A stretch of 32,000 nucleotides of DNA from Microcystis aeruginosa NIES-843 (GCF_000010625.1 NC_010296.1:3030001-3062000), one strand, 5' to 3'; numbered from the stretch's first letter, positions 826 through 29,051 are shown. The notes: generated from the sequence alone by a model not told the origin. A program made the numbers and translations.

Positions 826-1963
826 TACTTTGCACGGCTACAACTTGCATTTTTTACTCAAGGACAATAATATAGTTTAAGAGTCATAATTAGAAGCAAA
901 GCACTCATTAAAAACATGATTAACCTAGAATTCACGGAAGAAGAAAAGAACTCACTGTATTATGAAAGATTTCATCATCCCCATCCCCGGGTTCAACTGA
1001 AGATGGAAGTTCTCTGGTTAAAGAGCCAAAAGATACCGCACAAAAAAATTTGTCAGTTAGCAGGAATCTCGCCAAATACCTTATTAACCTATCTTCGAGA
1101 TTATGAAGAAGGCGGAATAGAAAAATTAAAAGAAATCAACTTCTATCGCCCTAAAAGTGAATTAGAGTCTCAAAAAGAAACGCTCAAAAAATACTTCGAG
1201 AAAAATCCACCAGCCACAATAAATGAAGCTGTATATAGGATAGAAGAATTAACGGGAATAAAACGAAGTCCTACCCAAGTTAGAAAATTTTTAAAATCAA
1301 TGGGAATGAAATGTTTAAAAGTAGGTTCTCTTCCTTCTAAAGCTGACCGGGATGAACAAGAGGACTACAAAGAAAAAAAGCTAGAACCCAGACTAAATGA
1401 GGCTAAAGAAGGAAAAAGGGCTGTTTTTTTTGTTGATGCCGCTCACTTCGTCATGGGAGCATTTCTCGGTTTTGTTTGGTGTTTTGAGAGACTTTTTGTT
1501 AAGTCACCGAGCGGGCGTAAACGCTTCAATGTTTTAGGAGCATTAAATGCAATAACTCATGAAGTTATTCTGGTTACGAATGACACTTATATTACAGCAA
1601 CTCAAGTCTGTGAACTTCTTAAAAAAATAGCTGCTTTAGGAATAACTATTCCCATCACTCTAGTCTTAGATAATGCCCGCTATCAAAAATGTAAAATTGT
1701 TGAAGAATTGGCTCTTTCTTTGTCAATAGAGCTACTCTATTTGCCGTCTTATTCGCCTAATCTAAATTTAATTGAAAGGCTGTGGAAATTGGTCAAAAAG
1801 AAATGTTTGTATGGTAAATACTATGAAAACTTTTCTGACTTTTCTTCAGCTATTTATGAATGTCTGAATGATGCCCACCTGAAACATAAAAAAGAACTGG
1901 ATTCCTTGCTCACTCTACGATTTCAGAAGTTTAATAAATCTCAGATTATGAACGTCTAAAGTA
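826..1963 (+). mobile_element. IS630-family insertion sequence, about 1.14 kb, nested inside the intron RT ORF
   Basis: Single transposase ORF. Imperfect terminal inverted repeats: left TACTTTGCACG, right (reverse complement) TACTTTAGACG. A TA dinucleotide is present on both flanks (824-825 and 1964-1965). Removing the element plus one TA restores the reading frame ...GVISPLLA|NIALDG..., a canonical RT motif. TA target duplication is the hallmark of IS630/Tc1-mariner. Confidence 0.85.
916..1959 (+). CDS. IS630-family DDE transposase, apparently intact
   Basis: 347-aa ORF with an N-terminal HTH-like region and a DDE triad in FFVDAAHF, LVLDNARYQK and NLIERLWK. The third acidic residue lies 35 residues after the second D by my count (DD34/35E-type spacing). 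The stop codon sits within the right terminal repeat. Confidence 0.9.
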   Translation: MINLEFTEEEKNSLYYERFHHPHPRVQLKMEVLWLKSQKIPHKKICQLAGISPNTLLTYLRDYEEGGIEKLKEINFYRPKSELESQKETLKKYFEKNPPATINEAVYRIEELTGIKRSPTQVRKFLKSMGMKCLKVGSLPSKADRDEQEDYKEKKLEPRLNEAKEGKRAVFFVDAAHFVMGAFLGFVWCFERLFVKSPSGRKRFNVLGALNAITHEVILVTNDTYITATQVCELLKKIAALGITIPITLVLDNARYQKCKIVEELALSLSIELLYLPSYSPNLNLIERLWKLVKKKCLYGKYYENFSDFSSAIYECLNDAHLKHKKELDSLLTLRFQKFNKSQIMNV

Positions 1964-1964
1964 T

Positions 1965-2711
1965 AGCTAGTAGTGGACTTATTACCCCTCCTTGTGGTGT
2001 CCCGGTTTCTGTTTCTTCAAATACACCGTTATCCAAAACTCCTGCTTTGAGCCATTGTTTGATGTCTCTTTTCAGGGAGCTTGGACAATGAATTTTGGAC
2101 AGTAAAAAGTCGTGATTAATTCGGTCAAAACACTTGGCAATATCAGCATCTAATACAAAGTAGCTACTTTGATTAATGGTGATGTATATCTTTGATATTG
2201 CGTCATGGGCAGACCTTCCGGGTCGGAAACCATAGCTGGTTCCTTCCATTTTTGACTCCCATTCTGGTTCAAGTGCCGATTTAATCAACGCTTGTCTAGC
2301 TCTGTCTTTAATGGTTGGTATTCCTAATGGGCGTTTTTCATCCCTGCCGGGTTTAGGAATCCATACCCTTCTTAGCGGTTTTGCTTTAAGTGTTCCTTTG
2401 ATTTCTTCGGTTAGATTTAGCCTTTGTTCTGGGGATATTGCTATCACTCCATCGACTCCTGCTGTTTTCTTTCCTTGATTATCTTGGGTTACTTTGCGAA
2501 CTGCTAATAGACGAGCATAGTATGATTTCGCCAATAGACGTTGCAACCTTCTAACCTTTGCATCCTGTCCCGATTTAGCCGCTTGGTATATCCTCTTTTG
2601 GAGCTTGAAAACATATCTTTGGACTTTTGCCCAATTGATAGTTTTCCATACATTCGTAGTCTTAGTGGTTTTCGGTTTCCCGAACCCTTTACCTTCTCTC
2701 GCTTTCGTCAT
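1965..2711 (-). pseudogene. Group II intron reverse transcriptase, N-terminal fragment (RT motifs 0-4), truncated by the IS630 insertion
   Basis: The ORF-track protein MTKAREGKGFGKPK...RKVTQDNQGKKTAGVDGV...RRVWIPKPGRDEKRPLGIPTIKDRARQ...SYGFRPGRSAHDA...VLDADIAKCFDRINH...GTPQGGVISPLLA then reads IL-stop from IS-derived sequence. These motifs are typical of group II intron RTs. Confidence 0.85.
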
Positions 2712-3471: not shown

Positions 3472-3641
3472 GGATCGCCTTACCTTCCCACTTAGAGGGG
3501 TATTCAGGGGGAATGACAACTGTGCCATGATGAAGAATCATTTTAAATTCAATCGCTTCCATTCGTTAAGTTTAATAAAGTGTTGTATCAAGTTTAACCC
3601 AATCAATCCATGGAGTTTTAGGGGATGAAAAAAAAGCAGCA

Positions 3642-3703: not shown

Positions 3704-4522
3704 ATGCTCAACGGGTACAAAATTATTGATGCTGATTCCCATGTCATTGAACCCCCCGCAATGTGGGGCCAATACCTAGAACCTAAATTTAGGGAATTTG
3801 CTCCTTCTGCTGACATGAAAATCAAAGGAGAACCGATTAGTCAAAAAATCTCCCCACAAGTCCAAGCAGAAGGGAATAAGCAGATGATGCAAGCTCATCC
3901 CCAGGCTTATCTCAATCGCTATAACCCAGAGTCCCATGTTCAAGCAATGGTACAAATGGGGGTAGATATGGCCTTTATTTATCCTACCTATGGACTGTGG
4001 TTATTTGCCATTGATAGCCTACCCGCCGAAGTGATGGGGGCTTTTGTCCGTGCCTATAATAGATGGTTATCAGAAGAATATTGTAGCTATGACCCGGCTA
4101 GACTGAAAGGAGTCGCTGCAGTCAATCAACATGATCCCGAAGATATGGTCAAAGAGCTACACCGCATGGCAAACTTGGGCTGGAAGGCGGTTTTTTTGCG
4201 CCCTAATCCCGTTAAAGGTAGAATTTTGAGCGATCGAGCCTATGAACCCTTTTGGACGGCCTGCGAGGATTTGGACATGGCTGTAGGAATTCATGAAGGC
4301 ACTCATAGCCGCTTACCCACCACTGGTGCAGATCGATTTAACACCCGTTTTGCCCTTCATGCTTGTTCTCACCCCATGGAGCAGATGATGGCACTGTTAG
4401 CCTTAATTGAAGGGGGGGTTTTAGAACGTCATCGGAGGCTGAGGGTGGCGTTTCTAGAGTCAGGGTGTGGTTGGCTTCCCTATTGGTTATGGAAGCTTGA
4501 CGAAGAATACAAAAGTTTATAG
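3704..4522 (+). CDS. Amidohydrolase-2 family protein (ACMSD/LigW-like metal-dependent hydrolase/decarboxylase fold), probably truncated at the 3' end
   Basis: The N-terminus YKIIDADSHVIEPP..MW..YLEPKF, the internal GIHEGTH, and FLESGCGWLPYWLWKLDEEY are typical of the family. The ORF stops right after the W..rlD..y motif. The C-terminal roughly 100 aa that normally carries the final metal-binding/catalytic Asp (D-Y-P-H-x-D region) is absent. No downstream frame continues it. Confidence 0.7.
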   Translation: MLNGYKIIDADSHVIEPPAMWGQYLEPKFREFAPSADMKIKGEPISQKISPQVQAEGNKQMMQAHPQAYLNRYNPESHVQAMVQMGVDMAFIYPTYGLWLFAIDSLPAEVMGAFVRAYNRWLSEEYCSYDPARLKGVAAVNQHDPEDMVKELHRMANLGWKAVFLRPNPVKGRILSDRAYEPFWTACEDLDMAVGIHEGTHSRLPTTGADRFNTRFALHACSHPMEQMMALLALIEGGVLERHRRLRVAFLESGCGWLPYWLWKLDEEYKSL

Positions 4523-4597
4523 TATGATGTAAAGAATCAGATTAAATTGAACTTAATCCAAGTATTTTCCCTATCAATCTCAGATTATTAAGATATT

Positions 4598-6700
4598 ATG
4601 ACTGAAAACCCCAATAATTATAGTTCTAACTTACCTTCTGGTTGTCCCTTGATCCCAGAATCAATCATGACTGCGAATAGATGTGAACACACGGAGCTTA
4701 ACTTAGAGATTGAAGGGCAATTACCAGAAGACTTGCAGGGTCATTTTTTTATGGTCGCACCAGTAGGAACGGTTGATTCTGGGGGTACCCCTTTTCCCGA
4801 TGGCGACTCATTGTTGAATGGCGACGGTATGATTTACCGACTCGATTTTGATTGCCCCGGTGAAGCAAAGATAACAACACGATTAGCTAAGCCCCCTGAT
4901 TATTATGCAGACAAGGCAACCTTCTTGAAAAGCCAATACCAAAAGTATAGATTTCGCAATCATGGAATTGTCCGCTTTTCTTACGCACTTGGATTTCGTA
5001 ATGAGCTAAATACAGCTTTTCTAGTTATGCCATCAGGAAAGGAAGATGTCCTAGATCGTTTATTAGTGACCTATGATGGAGGCCGTCCCTACGAATTAGA
5101 TACAGAAACCCTTGAAGTTGTTACACCTGTTGGCTGGAATCAAGAGTGGCGGGCCGAAATGAACAAACCACAATTTCCTTTCAAGACGATTTTGAGTACC
5201 GCCCATCCTGCTTTTGATAGTAATACGGGTGAAATGTTTACTGTAAATTATGGCAGAGCTATTATGAATCTGCTAAAGAGGCTCCCTTTTGCCATTGAAT
5301 TAGATGAACTCCCCAAAGACATTTACCAATTAATGAGGGCAATCATTGGTTTTTCTAATGCTAATATGTTGCGAAATATTTTTCAGTTGAATATTATGTG
5401 GGCTAAAGGTATTTTGCAACAGGCCATAAATGTAATTAAATATTTGCTTGGGGAAGATATTGAGAATTTTGTCTATCTGCTTCGCTGGGATGGGACAGGT
5501 AACTTAGAGCGTTGGAAGTTAAGACTTCCCGATGGTTCACCAGTAAAAATTGAACAAACCATCCATCAAATTGGAGTCAGCAAAGATTATGTGATTTTAA
5601 TGGACACAGCTTTTATTGTCGGTTTAGAGCAGTTAATAAACAATCCAATACCAGAGAATAAACAACTCGAAGAATTAATCAGAAACTTACTCGAAAGCCC
5701 GAATCGACCGGATTCATATATTTATATTGTACGTCGTAGGGAGCTCATCTCAGGACAGTACCCGATTGATTCTGACAAGGAAGTGACTGTCATCGCTAAA
5801 AAACTCATCATTCCTTTACCAGCTGCTCACTTTTTAGTTGATTACGAAAATCCTGATGGAAAGATTACGCTTCATGTTGCTCACATTGCTTCTTGGGATG
5901 TGGCTGAGTGGATTCGTAAATATGACTTATCGGCTTACCCACCCTATCATCCAATCGCCAAGCGGGTTTATTCTATGGAACCCAATGAGATGGATATTAG
6001 CCGTTTGGGACGCTATGTAATTGATGGAAACCGAGGAGAAGTCATTCAATCAAATGTTATCTACTCATCTCCCTATACTTGGGGAACGGGTTTATACGCT
6101 TACCGAGATCGATTATCATCAGGAAGGCAACCCAAACGACTTGATGATATTTATTGGATTTCCTTTGGACTTTGGCAGGAAACGATGACAAAGTTTCTCT
6201 ATGATTTATATAAAGATGCCCCCTACCGAGCAGTGCCTTTGGAGGATTTACTAAATTTAGCAAAACAAGGCGTTCCATCTTCCCTGTTTCGATTACATAC
6301 CCCAGATGATTCCCTGAAGATTGCCGATTCTTATCAGTTTCCTAGGGGATATATTGGTGGTTCTCCTCAGTTCATTCCTCGCCATACAAGCGAAGAAAAT
6401 TCTACAGAGGGTTACATCATTTGTAGCGTTTTTACCCCTCGTAGTAGCGAATTTTGGATTTTTGATGGGGGGGATCTGGCCAAAGGTCCTTTGACTAAGC
6501 TAAGACATCAGGATCTAAATTTTGGTTATAGTTTGCACACGGCTTGGCTTCCTACAATTGGTCGCCGTCAAGTGAGTTACAATATCCCTGTCAAATCGGA
6601 TTTTCAGCAGTTGGTAAAGGACAGTTCCCCCGATATTCAAAAACTTTTTGAAGATGAAATATATCCCTTCTTTCCATCAGATAATGGACATTTAGTGTAG
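4598..6700 (+). CDS. Carotenoid/stilbene cleavage oxygenase (CCD/RPE65/LSD) family protein, unusually long at 700 aa
   Basis: Family landmarks: [27 protein letters not shown], and four candidate iron-ligand His residues at about 203 ([13 protein letters not shown]), 323 ([15 protein letters not shown]), 411 ([10 protein letters not shown]) and 647 (GYSLHTAW). An extra segment of about 70 aa (residues about 220-290) lies between the first two His residues. Confidence 0.8.
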
Positions 6701-6714
6701 GAGATAAAGATTCG

Positions 6715-9700
6715 ATGCTCGCTCTTCCTAACTATGAGATTAATCACAAGATTTACGAAGGGGTTAAAAGCGTCGTTTATCGCGGTAAATCTTGTCAGAA
6801 AGAACAGCCCGTAATCATCAAAGTTCTCAAAGCTGAATATCCCTCCATAGAAGAGATCGTCTGTTGGAGACAGGAGCATGAAATTATTCAAAATTTAAAC
6901 TATGATGGGGTAGTTAAATCCTATGGTTTGGTTAACTATCGTCATGTTTTTGCCCTAATTCTCGAAGATTTTGGTGGTCAATCTTTAGCTAAATTTTTAA
7001 CAACCCAACACCTTTCTATTTCTCAGTTTTTAACCATTGCTATCTCCTTAGCAGACATCTTAATTAAGATTCACCAAGTTCCCATTATTCATAAAGACAT
7101 TAAACCCAGTAATATCCTCATCAACCAAGAAACAAAACAGGTTAAATTGACTGATTTTAGCATTGCTTCTAACCTAACATTTGAGCGGCAAACTATTACC
7201 AATCCTCGCTTTTTACAAGGAACACTGGCTTATATGTCCCCAGAACAAACGGGACGAATGAATCGCCGGATTGACTATCGCAGTGATTTTTATTCTTTGG
7301 GAGTGACCTTTTATGAAATGCTCACAGGAATGTTGCCCTTTAGATCTCAGGATTTGATGGAGTTAGTTCATTGTCATATTGCGAAACAACCTCCTCCTTT
7401 AGAACAATTCTCAGTTCCGCCGATGATTTCTAACATTGTTAGAAAACTAATGGCAAAAAATGCAGAAGAGCGTTATCAAAGTGCTGCTGGACTCAAATTT
7501 GATTTGGAAACTTGTTTATGTCAACTAGAAAAGCAGAGCCGGCTTAAGATTTTTGCTTTGGGAGAACGGGATTATCCCAATCAATTGCTGATTCCTCAAA
7601 AACTCTATGGAAGAAGTCAAGAAATAGTGAGATTACTAGAAGCATTCAAACGAGTAGCAAACCCAAAAGTAGCAGGAGTAGAAAAAGTTGAATCTGCCAT
7701 CGAAATAATGTTAGTCTCTGGTTATTCAGGAATTGGTAAGACATCCATTGTTAATGAAGTTCAAAAAGCAATTGTTGAAGCCAGAGGATATTTTATTAGG
7801 GGAAAATTTGAGCAGTTAAAACGCAATATTCCTTATCTAGCTCTGATTCAAGCATTTCAAGAATTAATTCGCCAGTTATTAACTGAAAATCAGGAGGAAA
7901 TTGAATCGTGGAAAGACGATATTATCAGGGCTATTACGCCAAATGCTCAAATTATTATCGATGTCATTCCTGAAGTTGAATTAATCATTGGTAAACAGCC
8001 AGAAGTTCCTCAATTAAACTCTCTAGAAGCTGAAAATCGTTTTAATCAAGTTTTTAAAGAGTTCATCAAGGTTTTTTGTACTCCTAATCATCCTTTGGTA
8101 ATTTTTCTTGATGATTTACAATGGATAGATTCGGCATCCCTAAAATTATTGCAACTTATAGTGACCGATAAAAGAGGCAAATATTTGTTTTTTATTGGTG
8201 CTTATCGAGATAACGAGGTTAGTTCAACTCATCCCTTAACCTTGATGCTAGAGAAACTAAAAACTACCCATTTAGTGATCAATCATCTTGAAATTCAACC
8301 CTTATATTATGACAATGTTCGACAATTAATTGAGGAAACTTTTAACGGTAAGGTTAATAGGGATGAGCTTAAAGATTTAGCCGAATTAATTTTTTATAAA
8401 ACCCAAGGCAATCCTTTCTTTATCTCTCAGTTTCTTAAAACTTTATACAGTGAAAATTTAATAACCTATCAAGTCAATATAGATCGTTGGATTTGGTCTA
8501 GTGAGGCTATACAATCTGTCGGTATTACTGATTATAATGTTGTGGAATTAATTGCTAGAAATATTGGTAAACTTCCTGAAAAAACGCAACAACTAATCAA
8601 ATTAGCTGCTTGTATTGGCAACTCTTTTAGTTTAGATTTATTGGCATTTGTTCAACAAAAATCTATCTCCGCTACAGCGAAAGAATTAGCGATAGCTCTT
8701 CAACAAGGATTTATTTTACCTCAGTCAGAAGACTATAAACTTCCTTTATTGTTTGATCAGATAGAATACCAACAGTTAAATTTAGAAAATGTAGAGATTA
8801 AATACAAATTTTTACACGATAGAGTACAGCAAGCAGCCTATTCACTTATTCCCGAATCAGAACGAAAAGCAAATCACTTGCAAATTGGTCAATTTCTTCT
8901 CAAAAAGACAACTACTCAAGCTCAAGAAAACAAATTATTTGACATAGTTAATCAACTCAATTTTGGGATTGATTTATTAAAGGATACCTCAGATAAAGAA
9001 CAGTTGTGTCAATTAAATTTAAGGGCGGGAAAGAAAGCTAAATCGGCTAATGCTTACCAAGCTTCAGTCAATTATTTACATTTTGCTTGTCAGCTTTTAT
9101 TATTAGATAGTTGGCAAAAGCAATATGAGCTTACCTTTAATATTTATCTTGAATTAGTAGAAGCTCACTATCTGAATACTAATCTAGAAACGGCTGATAA
9201 TCTCTGTGATTTTGCTTTACTGCACGTCCGAAGTCCTTTAGAACAAGTTAAATTTTACGAAATAAAGATTAAAATAAACTTGGCTAGAGGCGCAATAGAT
9301 TTAGCTCTAAATAACGGACAAAAAGCTTTAGAAATTTTAGGCATATCTTTAGTGGAATCACCACCACAAGCGTTAAACATTGAAAAATTAGCCAGATTAG
9401 GAGTGATGAAAGAACCTAATAAGTTGATGGCAATGAAGATTTTTAGTCTTATTTATGCTCCTGCTTGTTTTGCCGAAAGTTCTATAGCATTACCAATTCT
9501 CTATACTGAGATTACCCTATCCCAGCAGTATGGCAATTCACCCCCAGTCGTTTATGCTTATGCTGTTTATGGAATTATTGTCTCTTGGCTCATGTTAGAT
9601 ATTGATTTAGCTTATCAACTTGGACAATTATCTTTACGGGTTTTAGAGAAATTAAATGCCAAGGATTTTTGGTCGAAAGCTTATGTCTCAATTTCCATTA

Positions 9701-12426
9701 ATATAACCTATAAAAAACATCATATTAAACAAACGCTTGAACCCCTTAAGAAATCTATACAAAAGGCTCTGGAAGTTGGCGATCTTGAATTTGCTTGCCA
9801 TGGGGCCAATTTCTACTGCGATCATTTATTATTTGTAGGGAATAACTTAGAATTCGTTCACAATCAGCAAAAACAATATATTGATTTTATTGCTCAATAT
9901 CAGCAAGAACATCCCTTAAATTTAATCAAAATATGCGCCCAATTTGTTGAAATTTTAGTAAATGAATCAGTCGTCAAAAAATTGACGGGTACTATGCTCG
10001 ACGAGGAAAAGTCTTTAAGGCAGTTACTCCAAGTTAACAATCGAATTTCTGTCTTTAATATTTATTTTTATAAAGCTTGGCTTTGTTACTTGTTTAAAGA
10101 TTATCCTCAAGCAATAGAAAACACTAGGATCGCCCTTGAATATTCAGGTTTTGTGAAATCAGAAATTATTTTTACAGAACATAATTTTTATTATTCTTTG
10201 GCATTACTAGCTCAATATCCATCCCTCGACCAAAAAAATAAAAAACAATATCTTAAACAAGTCCAAGAAAATCATAAACTGATGAAATGTTGGCAGGATC
10301 ATGCCCCGATGAATTTTCAGCATAAATACAATTTAATACAGGCAGAAATAGCTCGTGTTTTGAGAAAACCTTTGACAGCAATGAAATATTATGATAGTGC
10401 TATAGCAGGAGCAAAAAAATATGAATTTATCCATGAAGAGGCTTTAGCCTATGAACGTGCCTCTGAATTTTATTTTACTTTAGGTAGAGAAGAAATCGGT
10501 AAACTATATCTCAGAAATGCCTATCATTGTTACATTCGTTGGGGTGCAAAGGCCAAAGTTAAACAATTAGAAGAAGAATACCCTCAATATTTATTAGGCA
10601 TCAGCAATCAAAACAAATCTAAAGGACTGAGTACCACCATTTCAACTACTGGTAATGATGGAGCAGTTCTGGATTTAACCACTATTCTCAAAGCCTCGCA
10701 AGCAATTTCTGGAGAAATTAAACTGGAAAATCTCCTAACAAATTTAATGAAAATTGTCATTGAAAATGCAGGAGCTCAGAAAGGTTGTCTGATTTTAGAA
10801 CAGGAAGGAAATTGGGTCATTGAAGCTCAAGGAACAATTGATCAAGAAACGCTTAATATCTTACAGCCGATTCCCATAGAATCTATCGACTATGATCATT
10901 CAATTCCTATCTTACCCACCAGTATTATTTACTATGTCGCTCGGACAAAAGAAACTATCGTTTTAAATGATGCCACTTCATCAGGTCAATTTACCAACGA
11001 TTCTTACATTATTGCTAAAAAAACTAAATCCATTCTTTGTACTCCTTTACTCAATCAAGGTCAATTAAAAGGAATTGTTTATTTAGAAAATAATTTAACA
11101 ACAGGCGCATTTACCTCAGAAAGGGTTGAACTATTAAATATTCTAGCAGCTCAAGCCGCTATCTCTATTGATAACTCAAGACTCTATCAAACCTTAGAAC
11201 AAAGAGTAGAAGAACGGACAAAAGAACTCACAAATACTTTAGAGGTACTGAAAGCAACCCAAGCAGAACTTATCTTTGAAAATGACCTGCTTAAAAGTGC
11301 TGAACAACCTCCCAAATTTGTCTATCAAGTGGGGGGCAGTTTACCGATGGATGCACCGAATTATGTGGTTCGACAAGCCGATCGCAATCTTTATAAAGCT
11401 CTCAAACAAGGTCTATTTTGCTATGTTTTAAATGCACGTCAAATGGGAAAATCTAGCTTAATGGTACGGATGATGAGCCAATTACAAAAGGAGGGAATTA
11501 GATGTGCAGTAATTGACTTAACTCGGCTAGGAACAGACAATATTACCCCCGAACAATGGTATAAAGGATTAGCCGTTGATCTGCTCCGCAGTTTTGGATT
11601 AATCAAACAATTGAAAACTTTTAAAGCTTGGTGGAATGAACAATTAGACCTGCCTCCTGTACAACGATTAGGACAATTTATAGAAAATTTTCTTCTAGTT
11701 AATGACGATTTTGATCAGCGGCAATCTAGACAATCGACTGTTATATTTATTGATGAAATTGATAGCATTTTGGGGTTAAAATTTGATGTCTCTGACTTTT
11801 TTGCTTTAATTCGTTCTTTTTATAACCAGAGAGCGATTCAACCTCAATTTCAAGAGCTAACTTTTGCCTTTTTTGGTGCTACCACACCTTCAGCTTTAAT
11901 TACTGACCCCCAGAAAACACCTTTTAATATTGGTAACGCTATTGAATTAGCAAGTTTTAAGGAACACGAAGCCCAACCTTTATTATATGGGTTAACAGAA
12001 AAAGTCAGCAATCTTCAGACCATGCTCAAACAAGTCTTAAGCTGGACGGGAGGGCAACCTTTCTTAACTCAAAAACTCTGTCAACTGATGCGGGATAGCG
12101 AGCAACCAATCCCCTCTAATCAAGAAGAACAATGGTTGGCCAACTTAGTAGCAGAAAAAATTATTCAAGATTGGGAGATGCAGGATCAACCCGAACATTT
12201 AAAAACCATTCAAGATCGCCTTCTTCAAAGTCCAAACCGACCCCAGTTATTAACCTTGTATCGACAAATCCTCCATCAAGAACCAATACAGATTGATAAC
12301 AATCCCTATTTACCTGAGTTATTTTTATCTGGATTAGTGGTAAAGCGTCACGGGAAAATGGACGTTCATAATCGGATTTATCAGACGATATTTAATAATG
12401 ATTGGCTTGAGCGATCGCTGTCTTAA
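6715..12426 (+). CDS. Multidomain signalling protein: Hanks-type Ser/Thr kinase, P-loop NTPase (AAA_16/STAND-like), helical/TPR-like region, GAF, coiled coil, and a C-terminal 'AAA-like' P-loop NTPase module
   Basis: Kinase motifs: [15 protein letters not shown] (7090..), DFS in place of DFG (7153..), AYMSPEQ. First P-loop GYSGIGKTS (about 7720) with [12 protein letters not shown]-like region about 10670-11195. Coiled coil [24 protein letters not shown]. Second NTPase from about 11323: [24 protein letters not shown]...[10 protein letters not shown] (Walker A, about 11431) and VIFIDEIDS (Walker B, about 11738). A GGAG RBS lies 14 bp after the upstream stop codon. Confidence 0.85.
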
Positions 12427-12447
12427 TACCATGGTTCAAAAATTTAT

Positions 12448-13785
12448 TTATACTGAACCAGTATATTGACTTATAAAGTACTTTTGATACAACTGACAAC
12501 TGACAATTGCTTTATTTTCTCTGAGTTTAATTAAACCCATACTATTAAGTTTATAAGCAATAATTGGATCGACTATTATTGGTTGATTACCTTGACAAAT
12601 CTGTTGAAAAACAGCGGCAAGTTCGGGTTGTTTTTGTAAAGTGACCCAGTGCAGCTGTAAATGAGAGGAATAAATTCCCGTTGATGTAATTGCTGATTTG
12701 ATTAAATCTGGCATCGTGATTTGCTCTTGGCTAAGATGATAAATCGCTAAATGAATCAAGGCAGGATGTCCCCCCACTAAGTCGATCAACTGTTGAATTT
12801 CGTTGGTTGCTAATTCATTTAATTGATATTTTTTTGCCAATTCTGCCACTTGTTCTTGACCAAAACCCTGTAACTCTATGGGTAATCCCACATTAAAAGG
12901 AGACTGTTCTAATCGCAGAGAAACATAAGATTCTGTGGATTGAACAATAATTAAACGTAATTTCTGCCACAGGGGAGATCGCTTAGATTCTTCATAACAA
13001 GCTCTGATTAAAGGTAAAAAATCTTCTGCTACTTTCGGATGTTCAAAGACTCGATGCACTTCGTCTAAAGCCAATACCAGTGGCTGTTTTATCTCTCGTA
13101 AAATATACTCTTCAAAATAAATTGTCCAACTCATTTTAATTCCTATATCTTCATCCCAATAATCATCTAATTTGGCTTCTAAATTCAACTGCCGAGCGCA
13201 ATTACGGCAGATCCAGCGTAAGAACTTGTTAAAATTTGCTATGATGTCTTGGTCTGCTTTTTGTAAATCTAAACTAACAATTTGATAACCGAATTGCTGT
13301 TGACAAGCCTCTAAAATTGTTAATAATAAAGACGTTTTCCCCCATTTTTTGGGAGCTTTAATGCGTACTAACGCCCCAGATTGTCCGATTTCCTCGATAA
13401 TTTTTGCTTCAAGTTTTGTTCGTTTTAGATAATAATAAGAATTATAGGGAACAGGAGCATCTGGGTATTCTGGACGCTCATTTTGGAGATATTCCTGACC
13501 GCAATACTGAAGCGATGTGGAGTTGGTAAAATGAGATTGTAGTCTAGATAAAAAATTTTTTTTATTGATCGTTTCTCCGATCAGTTGCGAGAGTCTATCA
13601 TAGAGTCCTGGGGCAACTACATTGGCAAGATAGCTGCTACTATAACCATTTTCTTGGGCAATTTCTTGATAGTTCTTTTTCTGCCAAAGTCCTCGCAATA
13701 ATAATTGTTCTGTGTCATTGAGACAGCGATTCTCAAGCTTGAGCAGTTGCCCATTAAGAATCTCTTGGATTTCCTCGAATTTCAT
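12448..13785 (-). CDS. HTH-like N-terminal domain + 'AAA-like' P-loop NTPase, paralogous to the C-terminal module of the 1903-aa protein
   Basis: Walker A APKKWGKTSLL, Walker B LVLALDEVH. The C-terminal ...AYKLNSMGLIKLRENKAIVSCQLYQKYF parallels ...[23 protein letters not shown] in the neighbouring gene. The N-terminal ~70 aa (LNDTEQLLLRGLWQKKNYQEIAQENGYSSSYLANVVAPGLYDRLSQLIGETINKKNF) resembles, from memory, the LuxR-like 'vWA-MoxR-associated protein N-terminal' module. The ORF track starts at 13872. I prefer the internal ATG at 13785 (MKFEEIQEIL...) because the first 29 codons look non-conserved. Confidence 0.75.
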   Translation of the reverse strand: MKFEEIQEILNGQLLKLENRCLNDTEQLLLRGLWQKKNYQEIAQENGYSSSYLANVVAPGLYDRLSQLIGETINKKNFLSRLQSHFTNSTSLQYCGQEYLQNERPEYPDAPVPYNSYYYLKRTKLEAKIIEEIGQSGALVRIKAPKKWGKTSLLLTILEACQQQFGYQIVSLDLQKADQDIIANFNKFLRWICRNCARQLNLEAKLDDYWDEDIGIKMSWTIYFEEYILREIKQPLVLALDEVHRVFEHPKVAEDFLPLIRACYEESKRSPLWQKLRLIIVQSTESYVSLRLEQSPFNVGLPIELQGFGQEQVAELAKKYQLNELATNEIQQLIDLVGGHPALIHLAIYHLSQEQITMPDLIKSAITSTGIYSSHLQLHWVTLQKQPELAAVFQQICQGNQPIIVDPIIAYKLNSMGLIKLRENKAIVSCQLYQKYFISQYTGSV

Positions 13786-14231
13786 TATTTTTGTCCAAGG
13801 TAAGAAGATTTGAAGAAATAGATTATTTGATTTTCCAGTTCCGTTGCAGCCAGAAACCCTGAATCTTGACATAACAGCACCGATTCAAAATAGAATTGGT
13901 ATATTTGACAAACAAGCTGACGAGAACCAGTAACCGACAAAATTGTGCGATGGCAACCCTGAGAGGGATTAGTTTCCCCCCTTGCTAGGAAATTATAGCA
14001 TTTCTTGTCAAGGTCAATTACACGGCAGCAATTATCTCTTGATCATTTCTATCAAAACCCCTAAGTCTTCCGCGTCTAACCCCTCGATAATCCTATTAAC
14101 AATTAGTTCGGAAAAATCCTCACAGGAGTTGACTAGACAGGGTTTTAGCAATCAGATGTACTGCATTTCAACTGCCTATTGGCAATTTTAGTACAGTGGC
14201 TGCTCCCAATCTTGCCAACAACTCTGAACAG

Positions 14232-20881: not shown

Positions 20882-22213
20882 ATGTATAGATGCCAGCAAA
20901 ATCTAATGAGCATGGATAAACATTTAAAGGCTATCCTTGAGTTAATTTGTGCTGAGTCTCATAAGCTGACTAACTGTGGAATTTATTATGCCCGTCAACT
21001 TTATTTAAAAACCCAGAAAATTATTGGCAAATTTGATTTAGAGAAAGAGTATAAAAACAACAAACACGATCAAGTTTTATCCTCTCAGGCAGCACAGCAA
21101 ATACTTAGAAGTGTTGCTGAGTCATTTAAATCATTTAAAGAGCTAAACCAGAAATATAGAAAGGGAGAGTTAACAGATGAGCCTCATCTACCTAAATACA
21201 TAAAAAAAGAAGGTCTGTTCCTTGTCACTTATCCCAAGCAAGCCCTAAAATGGGTTGATAATCAAATTGGAATCCCTTTAGGAAAAACTGTTAAGCAATG
21301 GTTTGGACTTGATAGCTTCTATTGGCCAATGACCTCCAATTTGAGGTTTCAAGAAATTAAGGAATTAAGAATACTGCCCAGAAATCATTGTTTTTATGTT
21401 GAGTTTGTTGATGAGAGTAAACCAGTCGAGATTGAGGTCAATCCCGATAATGTACTAGGTTTAGATCCGGGTTTAAACAATTGGCTAACAGGAGTTTCTA
21501 GTCTTGGTACTAGCTTTGTAATTGATGGAAGGCATCTTAAGTCTGTTAATCGTTGGTACCACAAGCAGGTAGCTACTCTCAAAGAAGGAAAACCTCAAGG
21601 ATTTTGGTCAACTCAACTCGCTAAAATCACAGAAAAGCGTAATCGAAAAATAAGAGATGCTGTTAATAAAGCAGCTAGACTTGTTATTAATCACTGTCTT
21701 GAGCATCAAAGGAACAAAGACCAAAAGGGGGAAGGTAATTTAGGCAAAAAGAACCATCAATCTTTTGTTTCAATTCCGACAGCAAAACTCAAAGAACGTA
21801 TTAGACAATTGTGTGAACATTGTGGGATTAAGTTTATTGAAACAGAAGAAAGTTATACCTCAAAAGCTTCATTTTTAGACAATGACTCGCTACCTAAATT
21901 TGTTGAAAAAACCGAAGGGTGGCAACCATCAGGAAAGAGAACAAAAAGAGGATTGTATCGGACTGCTCAAAATCAGTATATTAATGCTGATGCTAATGGG
22001 GCAGCTAACATAATTCGGAAAGTAAGCACAACACTTAATTTTGATTTAAGTCGAGTGTCTAGGGGCGTTTTGACTCGTCCTCAGAAATTCAAGTGCTGGT
22101 CAGCTAAAAAGACGCGAAGTCCGCTGAGAATCCTCCGTCATTTATGGGTCGGAGAAGTCAAAAAAACTTTTATTATGGAGGACAACTACTCGTGCTATAC
22201 CTTGCAGAAGTAA
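20882..22213 (+). CDS. tnpB: TnpB-like protein (IS200/IS605-family accessory protein, IS1341-type, with no tnpA). Probably a decaying copy.
   Basis: RuvC-like motifs LGLDPGLNNWLT and NADANGAANIIRK, plus the ETEESYTSKASFLDNDSLP block typical of a cyanobacterial TnpB-related subgroup. AGGAGG RBS at 20865-20870. There are no CxxC zinc-finger cysteines. Roughly 7-8 aa seem to be missing after INHCLEHQ relative to my recollection of relatives. The ORF tail runs 22 nt past the hmpF start codon. Confidence 0.8.
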   Translation: MYRCQQNLMSMDKHLKAILELICAESHKLTNCGIYYARQLYLKTQKIIGKFDLEKEYKNNKHDQVLSSQAAQQILRSVAESFKSFKELNQKYRKGELTDEPHLPKYIKKEGLFLVTYPKQALKWVDNQIGIPLGKTVKQWFGLDSFYWPMTSNLRFQEIKELRILPRNHCFYVEFVDESKPVEIEVNPDNVLGLDPGLNNWLTGVSSLGTSFVIDGRHLKSVNRWYHKQVATLKEGKPQGFWSTQLAKITEKRNRKIRDAVNKAARLVINHCLEHQRNKDQKGEGNLGKKNHQSFVSIPTAKLKERIRQLCEHCGIKFIETEESYTSKASFLDNDSLPKFVEKTEGWQPSGKRTKRGLYRTAQNQYINADANGAANIIRKVSTTLNFDLSRVSRGVLTRPQKFKCWSAKKTRSPLRILRHLWVGEVKKTFIMEDNYSCYTLQK

Positions 22214-23832
22214 AAAAACAGACTAGAGGTTTTATCGGTGGTTACAAAACCGAATTGAAACTATTGGCCTGTCAGCATAATGATCAGACGTGGAGTGCCA
22301 TACCGGGGGAAGATATCTTAACCTACGACGAAACTAACTCCCTGGGTGAAGGTGCGCTTCTCTTGGTAAATTTGAGCAATAATCGTCAACTGCAAGGAAA
22401 CCCGGAATTAGCGGGAGCGGAGATGGTGCGGCAACTGCAAAAGATTTCCCGTTTGATGGAGCGCAGCAAGAAAGATCAAGAGAAAATCGAGCAGTGGAAA
22501 CAATCCCTCACCTATCAAAGCGAGATTCTCAACCGCCAGAAAATGGAAATGGAGACAAGAATCGAGCAAATTGAACAAATAGAGGCAGAATTCGATTATT
22601 TAGAGCGCAAAAGACAAGAACTGGAAACCCTAAAACAACAATTAAACGAGCAACAGCGACACCTGGAAGAAGGACAAATAAATTGTAACTCCTACCCCAA
22701 TCTTTCCCCAGAAAAACAACAATTTATTCGCTCTCTAGCGGAGCGTTTAGCTAATAATCATGATCGGGGCAATTCTCCCTCACAAATTCTCCATTCCACT
22801 CTTGAATCTGTGCAGGAACAACAGACAATTTTAAATAGTTGTTGGCAGAGTTTAGAGGAGCAGAAAAAAACTGTAGAAAATCGTCAGGTCGCCAACGATG
22901 AAATGCTCGATTATCTCGAACAAAGAGCTAGGGAATTACAGACGAGTCGCAATGCTTTGGAAACGGCTCAAATACAATTACAAATACAAGAAACTGTTCT
23001 GAATCAAAAACAGGAATTATTCGAGCGCCTTAACCTCACCCTACAAACCACTGATTCTACTCGACAAATGCTCCTTCGTCTCCTGCAAGGGGAAGAACTA
23101 GATTTTGATGGTAAAATCGATCTAGAAGCTCTTGAAAAAATGCCTTTAGAAGAATTGGAGAGCTTAGTTAAGAACTTACAAACAGACCTCAAGCGCTGGG
23201 AAATTTTTGTCAACGACCAAGAGGAAGAATTAACTCTCCAATGCCAAACCGTGGAAGAATTAGAAGCAAGAATGGCCACAATAGATGAATCCGAGCGAGC
23301 TAATTTAGAATCCGAATTAGCCGAGGAACAGGAAAAAAAAGGAATGCTGGCGGCAACTTTGGTCGGACAAAGACGTAATCTCCAGGAAAGGCAAGCTATT
23401 CGCTCTCAACATCTGAAAATGCTGCAACGGAGACAGGGGATTTTATCCCCAGAAGATGCCCAAAAATGTAGCTTTGAACCATTGTTAATTCTGTTGGCCG
23501 ATAATTATCAAAATAATCTCCAAGAAAGTCAACGTTTAGCAGCAGAAATCAAGGGACTACAAGAGGATTTACCAAAAAACAGAGATACTATTGACGGTCA
23601 ATGGTCGGATTTAGAGCAAAAAACTCGTGAATTTGAAGAACAGGAGCGACAATGGCGCGATGCTAATCTGGCATTATTGCGTTTAAAAACTCAGGTACAA
23701 CAGTACGAAACTTTCCTGCAACCCGTGCAGGATCAACTCGATCAAATCCGTCAAAAACTAGAAACTATCTCCCAATGGTTGACACCCATGGAATCTAATG
23801 GTAGTGCCTATCATTACGCTATTAACAGTTAG
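22192..23832 (+). CDS. hmpF: Coiled-coil pilus motility/taxis protein HmpF-like
   Basis: From the GTG at 22192, with a GGAGGA RBS at 22177-22182: VLYLAEVKKQTRGFIGGYKTELKLLACQHNDQTWSAIPGEDIL...GALLLVNLSNNRQLQG...EKIEQWKQSLTYQSEILNRQ.... This matches my recollection of the conserved HmpF N-terminal domain. About 430 aa of Q/E/L-rich coiled coil follow. The ORF-track ATG at 22144 would overlap tnpB and adds non-conserved residues. Confidence 0.7.
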   Translation: MLYLAEVKKQTRGFIGGYKTELKLLACQHNDQTWSAIPGEDILTYDETNSLGEGALLLVNLSNNRQLQGNPELAGAEMVRQLQKISRLMERSKKDQEKIEQWKQSLTYQSEILNRQKMEMETRIEQIEQIEAEFDYLERKRQELETLKQQLNEQQRHLEEGQINCNSYPNLSPEKQQFIRSLAERLANNHDRGNSPSQILHSTLESVQEQQTILNSCWQSLEEQKKTVENRQVANDEMLDYLEQRARELQTSRNALETAQIQLQIQETVLNQKQELFERLNLTLQTTDSTRQMLLRLLQGEELDFDGKIDLEALEKMPLEELESLVKNLQTDLKRWEIFVNDQEEELTLQCQTVEELEARMATIDESERANLESELAEEQEKKGMLAATLVGQRRNLQERQAIRSQHLKMLQRRQGILSPEDAQKCSFEPLLILLADNYQNNLQESQRLAAEIKGLQEDLPKNRDTIDGQWSDLEQKTREFEEQERQWRDANLALLRLKTQVQQYETFLQPVQDQLDQIRQKLETISQWLTPMESNGSAYHYAINS

Positions 23833-25024: not shown

Positions 25025-25834
25025 ATGAATTTGCGCGATAATGCTTTAACGATTCTGCAAGAAACGAGTCGAACTTTTTATATTCCCATAAGTCGTTTAC
25101 CAGATCGCCTGCTCGAGGCAGTAGCCTCAGCTTATCTCTGTATGAGGGCGATCGATGAAGTAGAAGACCATCCCGACCTAGATAACTTCAGTAAATCCCA
25201 GATATTAAGACAAATTAGCCTGAATTTACAAGCAGGTACTGAAAATTCCACCAAAGAGGACTTTGCTTTTGGCTTAGTCCATCGGGAGATTTTGCCGGAA
25301 GTAACCCTGAGAATTGGCGAATGGGCCCTGTTAGCACCGGATTCGATCGCCCCCCGGGTTTGGGATGCCACGGCGGCCATGGCCGATCGCATGGCCTACT
25401 GGGCTGGGAATAACTGGGATATTCGCACAGAAATAGAATTAGATCAATATACCTTTAGTGTGGCCGGTGCCGTGGGTTTATTGCTGTCTGACCTCTGGAA
25501 TTGGTACGACGGCACTCAAACTAATCGCAGTTATGCCATCGGTTTTGGTCGGGGTTTACAAGCGGTTAATATTGCCCGCAACCATGGCGAGGATCTGCGC
25601 CGGGGGGTAAGTTTTCTGCCCCAGGGTTGGACAATTAGTGATATTCATAATTATGCCCGTCGTAATCTGAAATTAGCCGATTATTACACTCAATCGCTGC
25701 CTAATGGGCCGGCACTTGATTTTTGTAAGATTCCCCTCGCTTTAGCCCATGGCACTCTCGAAGTCCTAGCTTTAGGTAAGGAAAAACTCAGCCGCAGCGA
25801 TGTCATCGCTTTGGTACAACAAATTACCCGTTAG
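25025..25834 (+). CDS. Squalene/phytoene synthase family (trans-isoprenyl diphosphate synthase, head-to-head) protein, short form
   Basis: SRTFYIPISRLP...AYLCMRAIDEVED (first Asp-rich motif) and GLQAVNIARNHGEDLRRGVSFLP (second motif region, reading N-H-G-E-D where the family usually has D-x-x-x-D). Confidence 0.8.
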   Translation: MNLRDNALTILQETSRTFYIPISRLPDRLLEAVASAYLCMRAIDEVEDHPDLDNFSKSQILRQISLNLQAGTENSTKEDFAFGLVHREILPEVTLRIGEWALLAPDSIAPRVWDATAAMADRMAYWAGNNWDIRTEIELDQYTFSVAGAVGLLLSDLWNWYDGTQTNRSYAIGFGRGLQAVNIARNHGEDLRRGVSFLPQGWTISDIHNYARRNLKLADYYTQSLPNGPALDFCKIPLALAHGTLEVLALGKEKLSRSDVIALVQQITR

Positions 25835-27406: not shown

Positions 27407-27886
27407 GTGACCCTAAGAAAAGCCGTTGAGCTATGGGGATTACATCCCAATACATTAAGAGAATATGCCGATGAAGGGAAAATCAAAAGTATCAAAAACG
27501 AAGCAGGGCAACGATTGTACGATGTCCAGTCTTACGTCAATGGTGCAGCTAGAGCTTCCCTTGTTTGCTACTGCCGAGTCAGTTCCATCAAGCAACGAGA
27601 TGACCTTGAGAGACAAGTCAGCTTTATGCGCGGATTCTATCCAGAGGCAGAAATCATCCAAGACATCGCTAGTGGGTTTAACTTCCCAAGAAAAGGACTT
27701 AGAGCCACACTGGACAGATTATTGTGGGGAAATAAACTCACAATTGTTATGTCCACACTGGACAGATTATGCCGATTTAGATTCGAGCTTATACAGTACA
27801 TGGTCGAACAAAACGGTAGCAAAATCTTGGTTCTCGACCAAACTGTTCATAGTCCCGAATCAGAACTTACAGCAGACTTGTTATAA
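27407..27886 (+). pseudogene. tnpA: IS607-type serine recombinase (MerR-like HTH + resolvase catalytic domain) with a premature stop codon
   Basis: GTG start. HTH: LRKAVELWGLHPNTLREYADEGKI. Catalytic region: CYCRVSSIKQRDDLERQ. After ...ESELTADLL a TAA (27884-27886) interrupts the frame. The same frame then continues [25 protein letters not shown], which is the conserved C-terminal helix of these recombinases. This points to a single nonsense mutation. Confidence 0.75.
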
Positions 27887-27950
27887 ATACTTCACATCTT
27901 CTCTTGCCGAATGCCCGGACTCAGGAAGTACGCTCAAAAAATCAAAGAAA

Positions 27951-29051
27951 GTGCGGATTTATCCAACAACAGAACAGAAGAAACTGATGAAACACTGGTG
28001 GGGAGTATCTCGGTTTGTCTTCAACCAAACCATTAAATATCTACAGGAACCAGATAGAAAAGCTAATTGGAAGGCTATCAAGACGGGAATCATTAATGAT
28101 TTACCAGAATGGGCTAAAGAAGTCCCCTACCAGATTAAATCAATAGCAGTCAAAGACGCTTGTGAAGCCGTTAAAAATGCTCAAAGAAAATATCAAAAAA
28201 CTGGGGAAATCCAGAAAGTAAAATTCCGTTCCCGTAAAGATAAACAGCAATCCTGTTATATTCCTAAGTCAGCCATTTCAGAAAAAGGAATATATCACAC
28301 AAAATTAGGGCAAATACGCTTCACCGAATCACTGCCCGACAATTTTGGGGATAGCCGATTAGTATCCAGAAATGGACAATACTATTTAGCTATTCCCCAT
28401 GAGGTGCAACGATGCGAATCCGATAACCAAGGACGCATTGTCGCCCTAGACCCCGGTGTTAGAGATTTTCTGGCACTATTCTCGCCTAATAGTTTTGGCT
28501 CAATCGGGAGTCAGGATATAGGTAAAATCCAACGATTATGCTATCACCTTGATGATTTAATTTCTCGTTCTACCAAAGTTAATGCTAAAACCAGAAACCG
28601 TTATCGAAAAGCATCTAATCGACTAAGAAATAAAATCAGGAATTTAGTAGATGAACTTCATCATCAAGTTGCTAGATTCCTAGTTGATAACTTTGATGTG
28701 ATTCTTTTGCCTACTTTTGAAGTGTCAGAAATGGTTCTAAAAAATAGCAGGAAGATTCGCTCAAAATCTGTTAGACAGATGCTTAACTGGTCTCATTACC
28801 GATTTAAGCAATTTCTCAAGCATAAGGCTTTTGAGATGGGTAAATTAGTAATAGACTGCTGTGAAGCCTATACGTCGAAAACAGTTAGCTGGACTGGTGA
28901 ATTAATACATAACTTAGGTGGAAAAAAAGTCATTAAATCCAAGATTGATGGCAAGACGATGGATAGAGATATTAATGGCGCACGAGGAATTTTTCTTCGT
29001 GCTTTGGGAGATACCCCCTCTTTAAGAGACTCTCTTAGAGTGCATTGTTAA
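27951..29051 (+). CDS. tnpB: TnpB-like protein of the IS607-associated type. The ORF is intact but all four zinc-finger cysteine positions are substituted.
   Basis: [25 protein letters not shown] (typical N-terminus), [21 protein letters not shown] and [16 protein letters not shown] (RuvC-like acidic motifs). The expected YTSKTCSxCG...C..CG...DRD reads [34 protein letters not shown]. The start is inferred as the GTG at 27951. The ORF-track start at 27465 is an upstream read-through across tnpA in another frame. Confidence 0.75.

Follow-up and report, generated by a model that had tools for sequence, protein, structure and literature searches.

Here, we analysed a 32,000-nt stretch of the Microcystis aeruginosa NIES-843 genome (NC_010296.1:3030001-3062000, hereafter the window), in which positions 4523-14231 hold a block of three genes encoding a long oxygenase of the carotenoid cleavage oxygenase (CCO) family, a large kinase-NTPase of the STAND type (signal transduction ATPases with numerous domains), and a helix-turn-helix (HTH)-AAA_35 NTPase. 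The block is best read as an undescribed oxygenase-coupled STAND signalling module, and not as a recently imported gene island. That the three genes form one functional unit is supported by the same-strand adjacency of oxygenase and kinase, which is conserved across the phylum, and by the HTH-AAA_35 gene, whose occurrence tracks an AAA_35 end point. We place about even confidence in the more specific proposal that they constitute a cytoplasmic, oxygenase-coupled STAND sensory pathway with a core conserved across cyanobacteria.

Open reading frames (ORFs) at 4598-6700 (+), 6715-12426 (+), and 12448-13872 (-) are the only genes in the block, as stated in a preliminary description made from the sequence alone, and the domains called there by eye were correct according to Pfam: RPE65 in the first, Pkinase, AAA_16, GAF, and AAA_35 in the second, and AAA_35 in the third. 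The features of the block are:

4598-6700 (+): long, divergent RPE65/CCO-family dioxygenase, 700 aa (Pfam RPE65)
5282-5425 (+): family-specific, fast-evolving helical insert, oxygenase aa 229-276 (AlphaFold2 model, alignment)
6700-6714 (+): oxygenase stop, GGAG, and 14-nt spacer before the kinase ATG (direct sequence reading)
6715-12426 (+): 1903-aa signalling protein, Ser/Thr kinase - AAA_16 - helical - GAF - AAA_35 (Pfam)
6733-7482 (+): Ser/Thr protein kinase domain, aa 7-256 (Pkinase, E = 1.6e-37)
7600-8196 (+): AAA_16 (MalT/PknK-type STAND) NTPase domain, aa 296-494 (AAA_16, E = 1.3e-41)
8197-10722 (+): ~840-aa helical "mid" region, aa 495-1336, presumed STAND sensor/arm domain
10723-11169 (+): GAF domain, aa 1337-1485 (GAF, E = 2.4e-15)
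11335-12396 (+): C-terminal AAA_35 NTPase output domain, aa 1541-1894 (AAA_35, E = 2.5e-32)
12448-13785 (-): 445-aa partner, N-terminal helical HTH-type domain (PF26355) and AAA_35 NTPase (AAA_35, E = 3e-135)

Oxygenase and partner genes across cyanobacteria

GTDB species-representative genomes yielded 245 matching oxygenase loci. The best 78, with oxygenase identities from 99% down to 40%, were examined by searching them with separate domains of the window proteins, and all were cyanobacterial, representing Microcystis, Snowella, Halothece, Nostoc, Calothrix, Scytonema, Brasilonema, Microcoleus, Laspinema, Spirulina, Lusitaniella, Chroococcopsis, a Gloeobacterales metagenome-assembled genome (MAG), and Cyanobium. 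Linkage was counted over the 72 loci with at least 1.5 kb of downstream sequence. A kinase-AAA_16-helical-GAF gene lay downstream of the oxygenase on the same strand in 57/72 loci, with a gap shorter than 600 bp in 53 of the 57 (median 109 nt) and a 4-nt overlap in two genomes. The preliminary description had stated beforehand that its link between the oxygenase and a kinase/STAND gene would be refuted if the two genes never co-occurred outside this genome; in this gene-neighbourhood check the oxygenase subfamily was repeatedly linked to such a gene, and the pair recurs in many cyanobacterial lineages.

Within the window, the junction between the two genes reads ...GTG TAG GAGATAAAGATTCG ATG, with a gap of 14 nt and a GGAG at 6700-6703 that overlaps the oxygenase stop codon. 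Direct reading thus bears out the 14-bp gap with GGAG from which co-transcription had been proposed, and co-transcription is plausible given this short gap and the 4-nt overlap in two other genomes. Promoter and terminator scans returned sites no more numerous than in shuffled sequence.

In 7 further loci, the oxygenase had a second class of partner: a cyclase-AAA_16-TPR gene directly upstream on the same strand (L029 3622-7560, L061 3724-7635, L078 5968-9858, L063, L081, L036, and L059), often followed by two tandem oxygenase genes. Its product of ~1300 aa carries two Guanylate_cyc domains, AAA_16, and TPR and is devoid of kinase and GAF domains. In one more locus, the kinase was upstream of the oxygenase. 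Because the cyclase class lacks both kinase and GAF, we take the element common to all oxygenase partners to be the AAA_16 NTPase with its helical arm. The helical mid region of the window protein, which had no Pfam match and is 25-57% identical in linked orthologues, shows weak homology (22-25% over 400-600 aa) to the AAA_16-TPR part of the partners in the cyclase class, whose arms gave weak TPR_MalT/TPR_12 matches under the curated cut-off. The preliminary description had proposed the GAF domain as sensor of the oxygenase product, which is weakened by a partner class that lacks GAF and shares the AAA_16/helical module instead.

The kinase family itself has thousands of members. Six kinase homologues at 46-55% identity comprised four without an oxygenase neighbour (46-48% identity) and two with one, including an unlinked and a linked paralogue on the same 7.25-Mb contig. 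The unlinked kinases formed a single clade in a neighbour-joining tree, separate from all linked ones. We therefore regard the oxygenase-kinase linkage as specific.

Other genes recur near some of the oxygenases. Loci of the Microcoleus type (L048 2283-3497, L044 2814-4346) carry two ORFs with N-terminal GxGxxG dinucleotide-binding motifs, amine-oxidase/phytoene-desaturase-like by eye only, 4-5.6 kb upstream of the oxygenase in 9-11 close Microcoleus genomes; this may be lineage synteny only.

Module proteins and the proposed pathway

The oxygenase is identical to WP_050766297.1 (M. aeruginosa) and has more than 470 homologues of ~700 aa, of which the organism-named matches are all cyanobacterial. 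It matched PF03055 (RPE65) in two stretches at 119.8 bits, against a curated cut-off of 27, and its best sequence match among solved structures had E = 1e-10. The AlphaFold2 model, built from 71 homologues (pLDDT 85.7, pTM 0.88), matched lignostilbene dioxygenase (LSD), apocarotenoid oxygenase (ACO), CAO1, NOV1, NinaB, and RPE65 in Foldseek at E values of 1e-21 to 1e-17, with target-normalised TM-scores of 0.61-0.71 and 10-17% identity. From these solved structures we infer a seven-bladed beta-propeller fold. Four histidines (H203, H323, H411, H647) were invariant in the 71 homologues. A profile search aligned H203, H323, and H647 with the iron ligands of NOV1 (motifs AHP, MHDFG, LHGNW), and H411 was assigned as fourth ligand from order and invariance only. 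An active iron centre is likely, given these four invariant histidines and the alignment of three of them with NOV1 ligands. We consider the protein a genuine but extreme member of the CCO superfamily, with O2-dependent alkene cleavage as its predicted reaction.

The ~200 aa by which the oxygenase exceeds solved CCOs consist of the helical insert and C-terminal helices. The insert had pLDDT below 50, is variable or deleted among family members and missing from canonical CCOs, and is where dN and dS relative to M. wesenbergii peak. Many database records of these genes carry the label "lignostilbene dioxygenase", which is unsupported. The oxygenase scored 53-61 bits against NCBIfam models for LSD, NOV2, and apocarotenoid oxygenases with cut-offs of 650-800; LSD identity was rejected with only 53.5 and 61 bits for NF053778 and NF053780, against cut-offs of 800 and 650. 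Nor is the Tyr/Lys pair of LSD conserved, which we take to activate the stilbene 4-hydroxyl and placed by our own count on the 5v2d alignment: it aligns to Leu96/Arg134 of the oxygenase (HMMER alignment to 5v2d).

Oxygenase genes also occur in multiples. A single ORF of ~1411-1463 aa contains two fused long-CCO domains in L046 (7823-12058), L055 (7715-12058), L070 (7778-12169), and 9 loci besides, and tandem gene pairs are found in L029, L036, L061, L063, and L073. We know of no earlier instance of a double-propeller CCO.

The catalytic motifs of the kinase and of both NTPase types are intact. Residues K36, E54, D128, N133, and D147 of the kinase domain were conserved in 46-50 of the 53 linked orthologues, and the AAA_16 Walker A (GxxGxGK[TS]) and Walker B (DD) motifs were invariant in 53/53. 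Both AAA_35 copies, on the kinase and on the partner, retain Walker A (GKT or GKS) and Walker B (DE). The glycine-rich ATP loop of the kinase (6754-6786, aa 14-24) is degenerate across the linked family (Y-E-G/S-x-x-T-V-V-Y-R-G), and the catalytic Lys, Asp, and Asn are retained despite this; ATP binding by this domain may be atypical.

The output end of the protein varies. Among the last 470 residues of 50 oxygenase-linked kinases, we found SpoIIE/PP2C in 21, AAA_35 in 9, HisKA with HATPase in 9, GGDEF in 8, and a nucleotide cyclase in 3, with GAF found in 44/50 of these C-terminal segments. Such a constant input part with a swapped output can be regarded as the signature of a signal transducer. 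The histidine kinase (HK)-type loci L055 and L088 have the gene order HK, receiver (REC), REC-PAS-AAA_35, and a separate AAA_35 gene lies downstream in 7/10 HK-type loci. Because a receiver and then a receiver-PAS-AAA_35 gene follow the HK in such loci, AAA_35 is, on our reading, an end point of the pathway, either fused or reached via phosphorelay.

The third gene fits with this end point. An HTH-AAA_35 gene was present in 13/15 loci with an AAA_35 end point versus 0/32 with a PP2C, GGDEF, or cyclase output (Fisher p = 7e-10, uncorrected for relatedness), and the two AAA_35-end-point loci without it both have short upstream flanks. Its ORF can be extended to 13872, but the extension carries a stop codon in M. 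wesenbergii (L008), so the true start is probably at 13785. The N-terminal domain has the public precomputed annotation "vWA-MoxR associated protein N-terminal HTH domain" (PF26355). The AlphaFold2 model of the partner (pLDDT 84.5) matched the archaeal Walker ATPase PAB2304, NLR resistosomes, CED-4/Apaf-1, ORC/Cdc6, and MalT in Foldseek, and based on these matches we consider AAA_35 a STAND/ORC-like NTPase that lacks sensor repeats. Most simply, a regulated AAA_35, on the kinase, and an effector-bearing AAA_35, with HTH or CHAT, would act together and possibly co-assemble.

Other partners were observed elsewhere. In loci of the Scytonema/Brasilonema type, the stand-alone AAA_35 partner (862 aa) bears an N-terminal CHAT caspase-like protease domain, in 7 loci in total (L055 3236-5824 and 6 similar, e.g., L057 4269-6857), which suggests a proteolytic output in these lineages. 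In the Gloeobacterales MAG, a 1189-aa WD40-repeat protein (L073 4685-8254, -) adjoins two tandem oxygenases, and its N-terminus is 33% identical to the HTH domain of the partner; it may be a further STAND-type partner in a deep-branching lineage.

The core of the pathway we propose would consist of a dedicated, very divergent non-haem-iron alkene-cleaving dioxygenase of CCO fold and an AAA_16-type STAND transducer. The oxygenase would use O2 to cleave a lipophilic alkene, by default guess a carotenoid or apocarotenoid, and the STAND protein would perceive the product, or the oxygenase itself through direct contact, by means of its helical sensor region. This would permit nucleotide-dependent switching or oligomerisation of the AAA_16 module, which would in turn activate the Ser/Thr kinase at the N-terminus and, at the C-terminus, an output domain that differs by lineage (PP2C phosphatase, diguanylate cyclase, nucleotide cyclase, histidine kinase, or AAA_35). 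The fused AAA_35 STAND-like NTPase of Microcystis would co-assemble with the HTH-AAA_35 protein of the convergent gene, for which reason the final response would probably be transcriptional. The best-studied bacterial STAND protein, MalT, responds to a small-molecule inducer and is also regulated by the enzymes MalY and Aes, which bind to it directly.

The main rival to this pathway is a reverse wiring, in which the STAND-kinase would sense, via its GAF or helical region, and the oxygenase would be its regulated target: the kinase would phosphorylate the oxygenase, for example in the variable helical insert, and so toggle its product, and the C-terminal domain would form a second branch. The kinase domain and the oxygenase are indeed the two invariant elements of the main class, the insert is family-specific, surface-type, and of low model confidence, and in plants, according to a review (PMC5133782), CCD4 stability depends on plastoglobule kinases. 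However, oxygenases of the same family also pair with the cyclase-AAA_16-TPR class, which has no kinase domain, and the insert is missing in several kinase-linked members, such as the Microcoleus types. We consider reverse wiring unlikely.

Several points weigh against the oxygenase-first pathway. Its signal direction, ligand, co-assembly, and DNA binding are what we infer from sequence, which cannot tell signalling from oxygenase to STAND apart from signalling from STAND/kinase to oxygenase. The linkage counts ignore shared ancestry, and the Microcoleus and Scytonema loci include many close relatives. That the two AAA_35 proteins co-assemble is deduced from co-occurrence only, and DNA binding by the N-terminal domain of the partner from its family name and helical model. 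Finally, the kinase gene is split and the oxygenase shortened in M. ichthyoblabe FBCC-A1114 (see below), which would make the module dispensable at least in culture.

A broader extrapolation, which we hold tentatively and as doubtful, is that of phylum-wide, enzyme-coupled small-molecule signalling, in which a CCO-type dioxygenase would turn a pigment or lipid alkene into a signal whose formation reports O2, light, or oxidative state to a STAND kinase with c-di-GMP, cNMP, phosphorelay, or transcriptional outputs. If true, bacteria would have an equivalent of the apocarotenoid hormone signalling of plants (ABA, strigolactone, beta-cyclocitral), and a STAND protein served by a dedicated ligand-making enzyme would be known for the first time. 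The system could be tied to the beta-cyclocitral-forming oxygenase activity of Microcystis, but the wide distribution of the family argues against this link specifically.

Composition, flanks, and variation in Microcystis

The preliminary description noted the AT-rich composition of the block and took the mobile elements beside it to fit horizontally acquired cargo. The block is indeed AT-rich, with 36.4% GC versus 43.0% for the remainder of the window, and the PilJ-like gene on the GC-richer pil side to its right has 51.4%. The drop is due mostly to the kinase gene (34.8% GC; 26.9% at third codon positions, GC3) and the HTH-NTPase gene (36.2%; GC3 29.4%), the oxygenase gene being only mildly low (40.6%; GC3 34.8%), and low GC is also found outside the block, in the GT2-TPR gene (39.8%) and the IS630 transposase (35.3%). 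Across 46 loci, the kinase orthologue had lower GC than its own flanks in 44, by a mean of -4.2 points, compared to -0.5 points for the oxygenase. Because the kinase is AT-richer than its flanks in 44/46 genomes, we interpret low GC as a trait of the kinase family and not as a mark of recent import. The compositional shift is therefore real, but it is not specific to this genome, and we ruled out AT-richness as evidence of horizontal acquisition. The flanking features that bear on this question are:

916-1959: IS630-type transposase (DDE_3), inserted into the group II intron reverse-transcriptase remnant, which it abuts and truncates
1956-2711 (-): group II intron reverse-transcriptase ORF remnant, RVT_1 profile positions 1-130 of 205 only
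3704-4522 (+): truncated Amidohydro_2 gene remnant at the left junction, a flank outside the system
4479-14070: block shared with the M. wesenbergii MAG locus L008 (blastn), right flank different
20882-22213 and 27465-29051: IS605 OrfB/TnpB-like ORFs

Alignment and Pfam coverage agree that the amidohydrolase gene at the left junction has a truncated end, as first noticed by eye: the remnant matches residues 8-259 of a 356-aa homologue, with about the last 95 residues gone, and covers Pfam profile positions 2-203 of 289. The same gene is frameshifted in M. ichthyoblabe FBCC-A1114 (L007), and its body is deleted in the M. wesenbergii MAG (L008). Likewise, three kinds of mobile element are present near the block, namely the IS630-type transposase, the group II intron remnant, and the IS605 OrfB/TnpB-like ORFs; an Rfam scan of the whole window gave no intron RNA at the gathering score. 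Microcystis genomes are rich in insertion sequences (IS) and heavily rearranged, so that nearby mobile elements carry little information.

The cargo reading by itself would make the genes neighbours by history only, sharing no function. Its low GC, the truncated gene at the left junction, the IS elements and intron remnant within a few kb, and a right flank that differs in M. wesenbergii all fit with cargo. Against this, the pair is shared by dozens of distant cyanobacteria, low kinase GC is family-wide, the mobile elements are uninformative for the reason given, and we found no tRNA in a scan of the window, no integrase among its ORFs, and no repeat pair bracketing 4479 and 14070 in a search around the junctions. 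We consider the cargo explanation very improbable.

Two other genes of the window lie farther from the block, and no evidence ties either to the system: a 269-aa squalene/phytoene-synthase family gene (25025-25834) beside petB/petD, and a 562-aa ORF (22144-23832) without a Pfam match.

Within Microcystis, comparisons suggest that the block sits in a plastic region. It aligned by blastn to the M. wesenbergii locus at 94% (4479-12426) and 95% (12422-14070), and where the window has GT2-TPR/pilJ to the right of the shared block, that locus has flotillin-like genes. Identity of the region to that of M. ichthyoblabe FBCC-A1114 is 98%. The oxygenase was found in many named Microcystis strains, in four allele clusters with 80-99% amino-acid identity, and the genome scan matched only 2 Microcystis species representatives, with no empty site recovered. 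In FBCC-A1114, the module appears to be decaying. A 1.2-kb insertion (L007 15621-16837; window ~10214-10217) splits the kinase gene; its junction shows a 4-bp overlap, and the insertion carries a 297-aa ORF on the opposite strand, presumed to be an IS transposase. A 1.3-kb insertion is located upstream of the amidohydrolase (L007 7614-8930; window ~3529-3533), and the oxygenase is annotated at 666 aa only.

Divergence of the oxygenase from M. wesenbergii (window 4598-6700 vs. L008 779-2881) is mosaic. Values of dS were 0.03 in codons 61-120, 0.5-0.9 in codons 181-420, and 0.08-0.17 in codons 421-600, compared to ~0.10 for the kinase, and dN/dS was mostly 0.1-0.6 and below 1 in almost all segments. 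This looks like recombination with a divergent allele, affecting the central part including the helical insert, and not like positive selection.

Such divergent alleles also bear on the other proposal in the preliminary description, a STAND-type conflict system with an enzymatic effector. We considered it as a system of conflict or programmed cell death in which the oxygenase or the STAND protein would detect an invader or damage cue and AAA_35 assembly would trigger effectors (HTH here, CHAT in the Scytonema-type loci). Mosaic, highly divergent oxygenase alleles within Microcystis and a patchy distribution among its species representatives (2 matches) are consistent with this, as are the presence of two STAND-like NTPase types, the CHAT-AAA_35 partners in 7 loci, and an N-terminal domain family in the partner that was first described in vWA-MoxR conflict systems (Kaur et al., 2020; PMC7159879). 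On the other hand, 41/50 outputs are ordinary signalling domains (PP2C, GGDEF, cyclase, HK), mostly of second-messenger or phosphorelay type, gene order and core are conserved in distant lineages, and the low dN/dS points to recombination instead of diversifying selection. In PADLOC-DB 2.0, the oxygenase and the AAA_35 protein had 0 matches and the kinase matched only kinase-domain models (PD-T4-6, mad6, MkoA; aa 6-275), which are generic; we thus rejected membership in a known anti-phage system, given that no specific component matched in that database. These results weaken the conflict-system proposal, which we now regard as distinctly improbable.

Comparison with known systems

We found no description of an oxygenase-STAND pairing, of the long CCO clade, or of paired AAA_35 outputs in the literature searched on CCOs, cyanobacterial carotenoid cleavage dioxygenases (CCDs) and Ser/Thr kinases, and conflict systems. 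The individual parts are recognisable: the kinase architecture is a variant of HstK-type dual kinases, the oxygenase belongs to the CCOs, and AAA_35 exists in Pfam as a named, uncharacterised family. A 2012 survey of cyanobacterial CCDs listed two CCD genes only for M. aeruginosa NIES-843 and apparently missed the long oxygenase clade.

Compared with characterised CCOs (Synechocystis ACO, NOV1, LsdA, RPE65; PF03055), the window oxygenase has the same predicted propeller fold and keeps the four-histidine iron site. It differs in its identity of 10-17% to solved members, in being ~200 aa longer, with the helical insert and extra C-terminal helices, and in its dedicated STAND-kinase neighbour, none being reported for CCOs in the literature searched. 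Our comparisons define a large, structurally distinct, and uncharacterised clade of carotenoid-oxygenase-like enzymes. Microcystis is a bloom-former with ecologically relevant apocarotenoid volatiles, in which the module represents a candidate link from oxidative pigment cleavage to gene regulation.

The transducer shares with MalT, PknK, and mycobacterial cyclase-ATPase-TPR STAND proteins an AAA_16 NTPase followed by a long helical/TPR arm, and the related AAA_35 fold also matched MalT in Foldseek. In contrast to the MalT clade, the window kinase chain lacks a LuxR-type C-terminal HTH, its output being formed by a further NTPase domain together with a separately encoded HTH-NTPase, and the partner enzyme here is a dioxygenase. 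The AAA_35 fold is also similar to that of NLR pairs and apoptosome-type STANDs (NRC resistosomes, CED-4/Apaf-1). Like sensor/helper NLRs, the system has two paralogous NTPases that are strictly co-inherited, one with an effector-type N-terminus (HTH or CHAT), which suggests a role for AAA_35 proteins as paired STAND-like output modules; unlike them, the partner has no sensor repeats, the co-assembly is presumptive, and the context is one of signal transduction.

The closest known relatives of the kinase are the HstK-type "dual" or "trifunctional" Ser/Thr kinase-ATPase-GAF-histidine kinases of cyanobacteria (cbSTKIII; PMC2176072), which likewise have an N-terminal Ser/Thr kinase followed by AAA_16 and GAF. 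The window protein has AAA_35 at its end instead of HisKA/HATPase_c, an ending in histidine kinase being found in 9/50 linked orthologues, and belongs to oxygenase-linked sub-lineages; the unlinked histidine-kinase paralogues tested group apart from these in a clade of their own. HstK-like homologues of the window kinase number in the thousands, and for these orphan kinase-ATPase-GAF proteins the dedicated enzyme partner offers a first concrete and testable input handle.

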